Below are positions 12,001-15,000 of a stretch of 64,000 nucleotides of DNA, one piece after another. Source of the stretch: Escherichia coli (GTDB taxonomy: Bacteria > Pseudomonadota > Gammaproteobacteria > Enterobacterales > Enterobacteriaceae); the NCBI RefSeq assembly GCF_003334305.1, contig NZ_QOWS01000006.1. One strand, 5' to 3'. The stretch's first letter is position 1. Each line of letters opens with the position of its first letter. The position numbers are program-made.

Positions 12001-15000
12001 CAGATCCGTATTGGCGATCGACTCGCCTATATCAGCGCGCTGGATGCCCAACCCGATAATGGCCTGCCGGTGCTAACCTATCACCATATTCTGCGCGATG
12101 AAGAAAACACCCGTTTTCGCCATACTTCGACGACCACCTCGGTACGCGCTTTCAATAACCAGATGGCCTGGCTGCGCGACAGGGGATACGCGACACTGAG
12201 CATGGCGCAGCTGGAAGGTTACGTGAAGAATAAGATCAATCTCCCTGCGCGAGCGGTGGTGATTACCTTTGATGATGGCCTCAAGTCGGTGAGCCGCTAT
12301 GCGTATCCTGTATTGAAACAATATGGCATGAAGGCGACGGCGTTTGTTGTTACCTCGCGCATCAAACGTCACCCGCAGAAGTGGAACCCAAAATCGCTGC
12401 AATTTATGAGCGTTTCTGAGCTTAACGAAATTCGCGATGTTTTTGATTTTCAGTCACATACCCATTTTTTGCATCGGGTGGATGGCTATCGCCGACCCAT
12501 ATTACTGAGCCGTAGTGAGCACAATATTCTGTTTGATTTTGCACGTTCACGCCGCGCTCTGGCGCAATTTAATCCGCATGTCTGGTATCTTTCGTATCCG
12601 TTTGGCGGATTTAATGACAAAGCCGTGAAGGCAGCAAACGATGCCGGATTTCACCTGGCGGTGACAACCATGAAAGGCAAAGTAAAACCGGGGGATAATC
12701 CGTTGTTACTAAAACGACTTTATATCTTAAGAACGGATTCGCTGGAGACGATGTCGCGGCTGGTGAGTAACCAGCCGCAGGGATAACAATCAAGCAACCT
12801 GTACCGGAATCGCTTTCGCGGTACGTTTCATTTCATTGTCGCCTTCAAAATAGGCGACATTGGGTCGCCAGGTGCGAGCTTCTTCATCTGGCATGGTAAC
12901 GAAGCTGGCGATGATGACAATATCGCCGACGCTGGCGCAGTGGGCCGCCGCACCGTTAACAGAAATAATTCTCGAACCGCGTTCTGCCGCGATGGCATAA
13001 GTGGAGAAACGCTTGCCGTTGGTGACATTCCAGATATCAATGGCTTCGTTTTCGAGAATACCGGCTGCGTCAAGGAAATCCTGGTCAATGGCGCAAGAAC
13101 CTTCATAGTGCAGGTCCGCATGAGTCACTTTCACGCGGTGGAGTTTGCCCTGCAGCATCGTGCGAATCATAACTTCTACCTTTCTACCCTGTCGTTAACG
13201 AAGCAGGCGATGCCTGCTTTGAGGAAATTCTCACGCAGTATTGCCCGATTTTTGTTTAGTGTCTACTCATCTGACGGCATTTACATCAGCAGTTTGCGTA
13301 CCGTGCCGAAGCGTGCCATGTAACGGCTGTAACCAATTGAAATTTCTCTGAACGCTGCTCGGTAAACACTAAAGAGGTGGCTGACGATGGCACGCCTTGA
13401 CTGGATACTGCCTTCACGCAAGACAACACGGAAGGCAGGGAAGATGGATGCACCGAGTACCACACCGCATGATGCAGTGTTTAAACAATTTTTAATGCAC
13501 GCGGAGACGGCTCGCGACTTTCTGGAGATACATTTGCCAGTGGAATTACGAGAACTTTGTGACCTCAACACGCTTCATTTAGAGTCGGGGAGTTTCATTG
13601 AAGAGAGCCTGAAAGGACACAGCACGGACGTGCTCTATTCCGTGCAAATGCAGGGCAATCCCGGTTATCTGCATGTTGTGATTGAACACCAAAGCAAGCC
13701 GGATAAGAAAATGGCCTTTCGCATGATGCGTTATTCTATTGCTGCCATGCACCGGCATCTGGAGGCGGATCACGATAAGCTGCCGCTGGTGGTGCCGATA
13801 CTGTTTTATCAGGGCGAGGCCACACCTTATCCGCTCTCAATGTGCTGGTTTGATATATTTTACTCGCCGGAGCTGGCACGACGCGTCTATAACAGTCCTT
13901 TCCCGCTGGTGGATATCACCATCACACCGGATGACGAAATCATGCAACATCGGCGGATTGCGATTCTCGAACTACTGCAAAAACATATTCGCCAGCGCGA
14001 CTTAATGTTATTGCTGGAGCAACTGGTCACGCTGATTGACGAAGGGTACACTAGCGGAAGTCAGTTAGTTGCCATGCAAAACTATATGCTGCAACGCGGT
14101 CATACTGAACAAGCGGATTTGTTTTATGGTGTGCTGAGAGACAGGGAAACGGGAGGGGAGTCTATGATGACGCTGGCGCAGTGGTTTGAAGAGAAAGGGA
14201 TTGAGAAGGGGATTCAGCAGGGAAGACAGGAGGAAAGGCAAGAATTCGCCCTGCGTCTTCTAAGTAAAGGAATGTCTCGGGAAGACGTTGCAGAGATGAC
14301 AAATTTATCTCTTGCTGAGATTGATAAGGTAATTAACCTTATTTAAGTTACCTGTGTTATGACAGATGACGTGGGGTAAATTAATAACTGGCGCCATCAG
14401 CCGTAGCGCCAGTTAAGTATTACGCCAGCTCGACCATTTTGTTGTCGATCAGGCGAGCATCGCCAAGCCAGGCGGCTACCAGAATTACTGCCCGTTTGCT
14501 GGTTTCAGAAACTTCCAGCAATGTGTCGGCATCGCGAATCTGAATATCATCGGCGCGGAAGCCTTTTTCATTCAGTTCTTGCCCCGCAATGGTAATAATT
14601 TCATCGAGATCCCGTTCCCCAGCCTGCAATTTGTCAGCAATCGAACTTAAAACTTTGTACAGACCAGGCGCAATTTTGCGTTGTTCCGCCGTCAGATAAC
14701 CGTTACGGGAACTTAGCGCAAGGCCATCTTTGGCGCGCATAATTGGCACACCGACAATCTCAATATCGAAGCCCATATCGGCAACCATTTTGCGGATCAG
14801 CGCCAGTTGCTGAAAGTCCTTTTCACCGAAGCAGGCGATGTCCGGCTGGACCAGGTTAAACAGCTTGCTGACGATAGTCGAAACGCCGCGAAAATGCCCC
14901 GGACGGCTCGCGCCTTCCAGCATGGTCGAAAGCCCGGGAACGTCAACGTAAGTATGGGTTTCAGTACCGTTCGGGTAGATCTCTTTTACCGAAGGGGCGA

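Follow-up and report, generated by a model that had tools for sequence, protein, structure and literature searches.

The convergent genes yadE and panD of Escherichia coli end only 3 bp apart, and the machinery which forms the 3' end of the panD mRNA is, in our judgement, probably written on the opposite strand of the last ~30 codons of yadE. Because of this narrow spacing, the 3'-end signals of panD would be embedded in the yadE coding sequence, and the overlap of the two transcripts is obligatory. A further-reaching reading, which we regard as evenly balanced between right and wrong, considers the last ~31 yadE codons as dual-use: they would encode the YadE C-terminus and at the same time carry a full panD 3'-end module (hairpin, Rho-loading stretch and a second inverted repeat, hp2) which is kept across Enterobacteriaceae, fixes rare yadE codons (CGG, AGA), outlasts the deletion of yadE and rides with panD onto plasmids. 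The transcript overlap of this pair has already been published, and the feature, though real, is ordinary and for the most part known. Added here are the conservation and covariation of the hairpin hp1, its bias toward the panD strand, its survival after yadE loss and the absence of constraint in the 3' codons of panD.

Layout of the yadE-panD junction

All positions refer to the window, i.e., the whole 64-kb stretch of DNA analyzed, and are converted to K-12 coordinates by adding 133524. The yadE gene (11557-12786, plus strand) encodes a protein of 409 aa of the polysaccharide-deacetylase family, in which the corresponding domain and an N-terminal signal peptide were found, and panD (12790-13170, minus strand) encodes the aspartate 1-decarboxylase proenzyme of 126 aa (228 bits against TIGR00223, cut-off 106). 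The junction reads CAG GGA TAA (yadE stop, 12784-12786), CAA (12787-12789, the entire intergenic spacer) and TCA (12790-12792), the latter being the panD stop TGA at 12792-12790 on the minus strand. The first-pass annotation had pointed out these convergent stop codons 3 bp apart, and its observation is confirmed both in the window sequence and in the RefSeq layout of K-12 MG1655, where the gap is identical (yadE 145081-146310, panD 146314-146694). Likewise, strain FORC_069 features the same 3-bp gap in RefSeq and matches window positions 11557-13400 at 100% identity, and the 101-bp junction was found in 5424 of 5426 complete E. coli genomes. Beyond the species, yadE is convergent with panD at a gap of 1-6 bp in 44 of 80 Enterobacteriaceae panD loci, and the tight junction is thus old; in eight other species, a palindrome of 32-35 bp is inserted between the two stops, and in E. 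coli TB354 an IS1 element occupies this place. Among the 12 convergent pairs at 100-200 kb of the K-12 chromosome, with gaps of 3, 34, 37, 40, 42, 46, 70, 73, 88, 157, 201, and 215 bp, yadE-panD is the sole pair too tight for an intergenic hairpin. The description of panD as essential was imprecise, as panD mutants are beta-alanine/pantothenate auxotrophs which remain viable in rich medium.

The same annotation had concluded that there is no room for terminators. This is correct for the spacer, into which none fits, a shared bidirectional terminator between the stops included, but it overlooks that the end-forming stem-loop of panD sits in the last codons of yadE and that read-through is stopped by Rho. 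When 11000-14500 was scanned for consensus promoters and terminators, no canonical terminator of yadE or panD came up at the junction; of the two parts of an intrinsic terminator, panD has the G+C-rich hairpin but not the U tract directly behind it. A terminator match on the minus strand (12869-12853) lies within panD in sense direction and was taken as chance.

The panD mRNA 3' end and its hairpin inside yadE

In steady state, the panD mRNA ends at 12748-12752 on the minus strand (K-12 146272-146276) according to published maps, reaching 36-39 nt into the yadE ORF. Term-seq placed the end at K-12 146275, 146275, and 146276 in three conditions (Adams 2021, supplementary file 1), and LB RNAtag-seq at 146272-146273, with the same end on one further sheet (TRS 2023, Supplementary Data); the end is thus sharp, with a spread within 5 nt across two studies and four mapped data sets. 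Accordingly, the claim that each transcript has to run into its partner holds for panD, while for yadE neither data set contains a 3' end. The opposite outcome, both transcripts ending ahead of the partner's stop codon, is contradicted for panD by the published Term-seq, and the spacer of 3 nt makes it effectively impossible.

The mapped ends lie 4-8 nt past hp1 (12756-12778, minus strand), which is proposed as the 3'-end-protecting stem-loop of the panD mRNA. It begins 11 nt past the panD stop and reads GCGGCUGGU-UACUC-ACCAGCCGC on the panD strand, forming a perfect, G+C-rich stem of 9 bp with a loop of 5 nt and a fold energy of -16.6 kcal/mol; the opposite strand represents the yadE codons R-L-V-S-N-Q-P-Q. 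Neither hp1 nor the tail following it on the panD strand, GACAUCGUCUCC, has a U tract, and for this end a longest U run of 2 and a fold energy of -18.5 kcal/mol were given (TRS 2023). Farther downstream, a Rho-dependent termination peak antisense to yadE is reported at 12274 (K-12 145798, minus strand; Rho score 7.18, p = 8e-27), where the reads upstream/downstream amounted to 214/27 in untreated cells and 412/373 with bicyclomycin (Adams 2021, supplementary file 2). This score is calculated from windows of +/-800 nt, so that the peak is poorly resolved and does not locate the termination site, and it covers minus-strand transcription across yadE in general, which does not by itself prove an origin at the panD promoter. 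Following the C-rich/G-poor rule of Dar and Sorek (2018), the first ~80 nt past the mapped end (12672-12750, minus strand; 25% C, 16% G, C/G 1.54) are a candidate rut region for the loading of Rho. A stable stem by a precise end, the absence of a U tract and a read-through which increases on Rho inhibition are thereby found together, as in Rho-dependent terminators with a protective stem-loop. A rut site is expected to be unstructured, but the candidate region overlaps hp2 (12697-12739, AATCCGTTGTTA / TAAGAACGGATT), which covers yadE codons -31 to -16 under synonymous constraint and gave a divided result in the strand test, with core pairs favoring the panD strand and inner pairs the yadE strand.

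In the proposed mechanism, the polymerase demonstrably passes the panD TGA and makes the 9-bp stem-loop (12778-12756) without a U tract. The RNA would then be extended by an untranslated, C-rich stretch antisense to yadE, until read-through is stopped by Rho inside a few hundred nt, as suggested by the published bicyclomycin data at their resolution of +/-800 nt. By analogy with the transcripts of Dar and Sorek (2018), 3'-to-5' exonucleases (PNPase, RNase II) might subsequently trim the RNA back to hp1, and the stable end seen in the two published 3'-end maps would remain. Instead of stopping the trimming, hp1 could pause or terminate the polymerase directly, be it as an element for colliding polymerases or as an intrinsic terminator lacking the U tract. 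The known collision-driven elements likewise lie between convergent genes, encode hairpins without canonical intrinsic features and produce sharp 3' ends such as that of panD. Nevertheless, we consider this explanation unlikely, as the class is described as Rho-independent and the read-through at panD is strongly bicyclomycin-sensitive. Moreover, no yadE 3' end across hp1 is listed in Adams 2021 or TRS, hp1 sits within a translated ORF on the yadE strand, and yadE is expressed about 13-fold below panD per kb, so that polymerase collisions would be rare.

The role of hp1 as a protected panD end is further suggested by its evolution. In a comparison of 54 distinct sequences, drawn from about ten genera, 98.4% of the stem cells are paired, and 3 of the 9 pairs have changed in both arms. 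None of 500 shuffles was equally good, a control which overstates the significance since the sequences are related. Pairing is more complete on the panD strand (98.6% vs. 93.6% on the yadE strand), where G-U pairs take up 30 cells compared with 6 on the yadE strand. Both arms encode the well-conserved YadE C-terminus (SRL[VI]SNQPQG), whose amino acids are nearly invariant, and the stem codons are mostly common ones such as CCG, CAG, and CTG; part of the hp1 conservation is therefore expected without any RNA function. Taken to its end, this argument makes the junction a case of neutral compaction, with hp1 as a by-product of the YadE peptide and preferred codons and the 3' end as a chance exonuclease stall. 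We regard this as very unlikely in view of the variation at synonymous sites and the strand preference of the G-U pairs. The normalized synonymous entropy is 0.31 in the hp1 stem codons and 0.66 in the rest of yadE (p = 0.0014), and 56 out of 57 sequences have the rare CGG as the Arg codon of the stem, while for an Arg 14 positions upstream all six codons are used. In addition, compensatory double changes at synonymous sites are found in Kluyvera (CAG/CTG to CAA/TTA) and in other genera (AAC/GTG to AAT/ATC). Judged by this sequence comparison, hp1 has been conserved throughout the Enterobacteriaceae and exhibits both covariation and a reduced level of synonymous change. An assignment of hp1 to repeated elements such as REP was rejected, as it occurs a single time in the 64-kb window. 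Besides, an Rfam search of 11400-13500 (E <= 1) returned only two hits, BaMV_CRE (18 bits vs. 100) and snoRNA sR39, which are far under their gathering scores and were both rejected.

Loci in which yadE is lost or damaged likewise argue against a mere by-product of the YadE peptide. At three loci with disrupted yadE, hp1 is retained. In a Pluralibacter MAG, ~1.24 kb of yadE are gone and hp1 is still there, with a compensatory change from T-A to C-G which disregards the yadE reading frame; a further locus (L041) resembles it in lacking yadE and retaining hp1, and the independent yadE deletions which keep hp1 number only one or two. A plasmid-borne panD cassette (61 plasmid records) also preserves hp1, with a mutated yadE stop codon and a decaying yadE remnant. 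At the other 17 of the 19 loci without yadE, a different hairpin lies within ~30 nt past the panD stop, often with a T run.

Antisense RNA and the yadE side of the junction

On the yadE side, the sole terminator-like candidate is a weak hairpin (12799-12822) followed by the U-rich GUUUCAUUUCAUU (12799-12835 in total, plus strand) inside the 3' codons of panD. As a conserved yadE terminator it was rejected, since its fold energy is only -5.9 kcal/mol and panD codons 117-126 vary normally at synonymous sites, alike with or without an abutting yadE; the hairpin is probably not functional. The junction is accordingly asymmetric, with yadE carrying constraint that serves panD and panD carrying none that serves yadE. 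The supplementary lists of Adams 2021 (Term-seq) and TRS contain no yadE 3' end, and the TERMITe supplements mention neither gene. The yadE transcripts probably run for a variable antisense stretch into panD, and their ends may be diffuse, generated by Rho or by polymerase collision.

An obligatory 3' overlap could, as a regulatory excludon, lead to mutual repression via RNase III or transcriptional interference and so couple beta-alanine/pantothenate synthesis to the expression of the YadE deacetylase. ExcludonFinder (Sanmartin et al., NAR 2025) indeed lists yadE-panD as one of 165 convergent excludons which, out of 58 RNA-seq samples of E. coli, were detected in 50% or more, and the broad structural features of an excludon are present, with opposite strands meeting 3'-to-3' and the panD transcript entering the yadE unit. 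In the wild type, antisense reads of yadE reach 35% of the sense reads (10.9 vs. 31.1 RPM), and small dsRNA reads captured by p19 map to both genes. For panD, 128 RPM of sense and 5.3 RPM of antisense reads were counted, a low antisense signal which fits, without proving, read-through from yadE. Nevertheless, a regulatory excludon is distinctly unlikely in our estimation. In one growth condition, neither rnc-14 nor rnc-38 raised the sense RNAs (yadE from 31 to 23 and 24 RPM, panD from 128 to 83 and 122 RPM) or led to an accumulation of antisense reads of either gene. Among the p19 matches listed, none is a duplex at the junction, and the only one in yadE lies at its 5' end, away from panD. Furthermore, the stable overlap comprises just 36-39 nt, which are mostly locked in the intramolecular hairpin, and longer read-through is limited by Rho. 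The published call represents a coverage threshold and not a reciprocal expression of the two genes, and the annotation of the two proteins gives no evident functional connection of PanD with a polysaccharide deacetylase. Under laboratory conditions, whatever regulatory effect the antisense RNA may have is probably small.

Significance and relation to known systems

The direct importance of the junction is small, yet it illustrates how a compact genome embeds the 3'-end signal of one gene in the coding sequence of its neighbor. A clean knockout, codon optimization or genome recoding which removes or rewrites the 3' end of yadE may alter the stability of the panD mRNA and hence the supply of beta-alanine and pantothenate. 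Likewise, the synonymous conservation at the end of yadE is not to be taken as selection on YadE translation, and coverage-based excludon lists include pairs whose overlap may be structural and not regulatory. If the dual-use reading is true, a terminator can constrain the protein sequence as well as the codon choice of a neighboring gene, and the output of panD depends on a sequence internal to yadE.

Among the known systems, convergent excludons, a concept first described in Listeria, involve overlapping 3' UTRs of neighboring genes (Sanmartin et al., NAR 2025). The yadE-panD pair resembles them in being adjacent and convergent with overlapping transcripts, and it is itself on the E. coli list; unlike in a functional excludon, which is defined by mutual exclusion of expression and by dependence on RNase III, the available rnc data display no effect on either gene. 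The bidirectional intrinsic terminator of hpt-can (40-bp gap), a pair in the same region, also consists of one palindromic DNA element where convergent genes meet. Its hairpin is intergenic and both ends are mapped around it (K-12 142003 on the plus and 141973 on the minus strand), whereas the hairpin of yadE-panD is located inside one ORF, lacks U or A tracts and has the panD end alone mapped. Collision-driven bidirectional terminators are reported to be Rho-independent and to feature overlapping ends from both sides (Ju et al. 2019; Wang et al. 2022 preprint). The convergent orientation and a hairpin element without features of an intrinsic terminator are shared with this class, but the Rho-dependence seen at panD and the weak expression of yadE set the junction apart from it. 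Finally, Dar and Sorek (NAR 2018) described Rho-dependent transcripts with steady-state 3' ends just past a stable stem-loop that lacks a U tract. Like these, the panD mRNA possesses a stem of -16.6 to -18.5 kcal/mol located 4-8 nt before a precise end, has no U tract, exhibits bicyclomycin-sensitive read-through and is C-rich directly past the hairpin. Unlike in this class, in which the elements belong to intergenic 3' UTRs, panD has both its stem-loop and its putative rut within the coding sequence of yadE, its convergent neighbor, which places two simultaneous constraints on that sequence.

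The yadE-panD junction and its conservation

The first-pass annotation had placed the stop codons of the convergent genes yadE (11557..12786, plus strand, 409 aa) and panD (12790..13170, minus strand, 126 aa) 3 bp apart, and this is borne out by the window sequence (GGA TAA CAA TCA at 12784-12792, including the GGA codon just upstream), by both ORFs and by the RefSeq annotations of K-12 MG1655 (yadE end 146310, panD begin 146314; K-12 = window + 133524) and FORC_069. As RefSeq annotates the identical spacer, the observation is correct and was already visible in public annotation. 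PanD was identified by the TIGR00223 equivalog model (228 bits, cut-off 106), while YadE features a polysaccharide-deacetylase domain and similarity to PgaB and IcaB below the cut-off. K-12 YadE is annotated as 'putative polysaccharide deacetylase lipoprotein'; its N-terminus (11557-11625) contains no cysteine and thus no lipobox, and from its sequence resembles a regular signal peptide that is cleaved off.

E. coli FORC_069 matches the stretch 11557-13400 with 100% identity, and 5425 out of 5426 complete genomes of the species contain this stretch; the 101 bp spanning the junction occur in 5424 of 5426 genomes, with 4302 records at 99% identity or higher. A natural separation of both genes is known from one of the 5426 genomes, E. 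coli TB354 (L085, 3058-3837), in which IS1A sits exactly between the stop codons (window 12787-12789) and leaves both genes intact. Among the 12 convergent pairs of K-12 100-200 kb (gaps of 3, 34, 37, 40, 42, 46, 70, 73, 88, 157, 201, and 215 bp), yadE-panD is the sole one without space for a hairpin.

In a PanD-based scan with one genome per species, of which the best 80 loci were retained, a convergent yadE with a gap of 1-6 bp was present in 44 (Escherichia, Salmonella, Citrobacter, Pluralibacter, Pseudocitrobacter, some Klebsiella, Enterobacter, Lelliottia, Leclercia, and Silvania). Further loci showed gaps of 32-35 bp (eight, e.g., Kluyvera and K. pneumoniae) or 61 bp (one, Kosakonia), insertions of 0.8-2.5 kb (five, Raoultella and relatives), a disrupted yadE with its 3' end still adjoining panD (three; L004, L037, and L081) or no yadE (19). 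A G+C-rich palindrome of 32-35 bp lies between both stop codons in loci L030, L031, L040, L043, L046, L053, L060, and L068, which belong to Kluyvera, K. pneumoniae, one Raoultella species, and one Enterobacter species; it may be REP-like or may have been acquired as a small bidirectional hairpin, and all eight loci keep the hairpin internal to yadE. One locus, L048, stems from a contig titled 'Chryseobacterium sp. 18061' yet features a typical enterobacterial panD-yadE arrangement and a PanD sharing 94% identity with the E. coli protein, so that this record is probably contaminated or mislabelled.

Transcript ends and antisense signal

It had further been claimed that each transcript must extend into the partner gene, and for panD published 3' ends, lying 36-39 nt inside the yadE ORF, agree. 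The primary panD 3' end, also classified as antisense to yadE, was mapped to 146275 (-) in two conditions and 146276 (-) in a third (Adams et al., 2021, eLife, PMC7815308, supplementary file 1). The tabulated sequences run from -50 to +10 relative to the end, as checked on the hpt and can rows, and the panD end therefore falls at ...ACCAGCCGC-GACAU, window 12751-12752. An independent 3'-end mapping, the TRS study, reported a primary terminus at 146272-146273, with folding predicted at -18.5 kcal/mol and the longest stretch of U being 2 nt (Nat Commun 2023, PMC10687069). The resulting 3' UTR comprises 39-42 nt, namely 3 intergenic nt and 36-39 nt antisense to the final bases of the yadE ORF. 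The overlap of the panD transcript with yadE is thus already documented. Moreover, a Rho termination region antisense to yadE was assigned to 145798 (-), where upstream/downstream reads changed from 214/27 untreated to 412/373 with bicyclomycin (Rho score 7.18, p = 8e-27; PMC7815308, supplementary file 2).

For yadE, no 3' end is listed in either data set. Past the TAA, its strand has a single terminator-like feature, a weak stem (12799-12822, -5.9 kcal/mol) that precedes GUUUCAUUUCAUU. Synonymous variation in panD codons 117-126 is unremarkable and does not differ between genomes with and without an abutting yadE, so that no conserved terminator for yadE was found inside panD. In the wild type, yadE yielded 31.1 RPM sense and 10.9 RPM antisense (about 25 and about 9 per kb), panD 127.6 and 5.3 RPM (about 335 and about 14 per kb; Huang et al., 2020, mBio, PMC7373196, Table S1c). 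These values fit a sizeable antisense signal over yadE arising by panD read-through, as well as weak yadE transcription running on into panD, without proving either origin.

Antisense interference between both genes had also been suggested, and yadE-panD is among 165 convergent excludons, i.e., convergent pairs with overlapping transcripts, which Sanmartin et al. (2025, NAR, PMC12288877) detected in half or more of 58 RNA-seq samples. The same paper states that both genes share one metabolic pathway, which the annotations examined do not bear out. Small RNAs captured by p19 reach moderate levels at both genes (PMC7373196). Nevertheless, in the rnc-14 and rnc-38 mutants sense RNA rose for neither yadE (22.8 and 24.4 vs 31.1 RPM in the wild type) nor panD (82.9 and 122.3 vs 127.6 RPM), and antisense reads did not accumulate (PMC7373196). 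The single yadE duplex among those listed for p19 lies at its 5' end (K-12 145120-145143), with none at the junction, and p19 signal is generally far lower for 3' than for 5' overlaps (Huang et al., 2020). In addition, the stable overlap spans few nucleotides, most of which are tied up in a hairpin. Accordingly, a regulatory excludon is rated possible but unsupported, and the limited data at hand do not favour the regulatory antisense suggestion. The duplex at the yadE 5' end (window ~11596-11619) is a 21-22 bp RNase III product, implying that some antisense transcription reaches or begins at this site far from the junction.

The convergent pair that follows, rpnC-panC (gap of 73 bp, window ~13871-14420 from the rpnC to the panC 3' end), also appears in the published excludon list. 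Its Rho region antisense to rpnC (K-12 147624 (-), window ~14100) has a score of 16.9, stronger than that of yadE, and the TRS study places the panC 3' end at K-12 147902-147903.

The hairpin in the last codons of yadE

On the panD strand, a stem of 9 perfect base pairs closing a 5-nt loop, GCGGCUGGU-UACUC-ACCAGCCGC (12778-12756, -16.6 kcal/mol), begins 11 nt past the panD stop codon; it is followed by GACAUCGUCUCC and no U tract. Read on the yadE strand it encodes R-L-V-S-N-Q-P-Q directly ahead of Gly-stop. The sequence occurs once in the 64-kb window, and Rfam gave no match for the yadE-panD region.

Alignment of the yadE 3' terminus (last 16 codons, stop codon, and 3 nt of flank; 59 sequences, 54 distinct) showed the nine pairs formed in 98.4% of cells, with slid controls all at or below 56% and changes on both sides at three pairs. 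None of 500 shuffles attained the observed pairing or covariation score, a significance overstated by the relatedness of the sequences. Compensatory changes fall at coding-neutral or near-neutral sites, e.g., in Kluyvera Gln CAG to CAA coupled to Leu CTG to TTA, or across many genera Asn AAC to AAT coupled to Val GTG to Ile ATC, the latter with G-U intermediates. Both G-U cells (30 vs 6) and pairing (98.6% vs 93.6%) are higher on the panD than on the yadE strand. Normalised synonymous entropy of the stem codons is 0.31, as against 0.66 in 68 codons elsewhere in yadE (Mann-Whitney p = 0.0014), to be read with the caveats that the YadE C-terminus is conserved in its own right and several stem codons are preferred ones. 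The rare Arg codon CGG in the stem is fixed in 56 of 57 sequences; for the Arg 14 codons upstream, all six codons are in use.

The hairpin is also retained in the three loci with disrupted yadE. In a Pluralibacter MAG (L015), ~1.24 kb of yadE is deleted, bringing yadI next after panD. Homology to P. gergoviae breaks just past the hairpin. The hairpin itself persists, carrying a double change (T-A to C-G) that disregards the former reading frame, and very C-rich sequence follows it. Like L015, the yadE-less locus L041 retains a GCGGC stem of this type, while in the other 17 of 19 yadE-less loci a strong hairpin distinct from it lies in the initial ~30 nt past the panD stop, often with a T run. 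Furthermore, 61 E. coli plasmid records contain a second, mobilised panD copy among IS elements, in a ~0.8 kb cassette where panD is joined by ~186 nt from the 3' end of yadE and by the initial ~130 nt of rpnC. On plasmid 1 of E. coli CB209 (L086, 6001-6971, equivalent to window ~12604-13400), the hairpin is intact and the yadE stop codon changed from TAA to TCA.

A proposed Rho-dependent end for panD

In the reading that explains these data best, the panD 3' end would be Rho-dependent, with a protective stem-loop encoded in the last codons of yadE; selection on panD RNA would explain its long-term upkeep, and yadE would have no reciprocal element in panD. A second inverted repeat (12697-12739, arms 12697-12708 and 12728-12739; yadE codons -31 to -16), located past the mapped panD end, may belong to the Rho termination module. 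Synonymous variation is suppressed in its arm codons (0.34 vs 0.66, p = 0.0004), 42 of 56 species retain AGA, a very rare codon for Arg, and the G-U/C-A strand test was mixed.

Rho-dependent transcripts were described to have their ends just downstream of stable stem-loops without U tract, with rut sites directly next (Dar and Sorek, 2018). The panD end fits this pattern, featuring a stem-loop without U tract and, in the 80 nt beyond the mapped end, C-rich and G-poor sequence (C/G 1.54). The yadE-panD element is thus of a known kind in a slightly unusual place.
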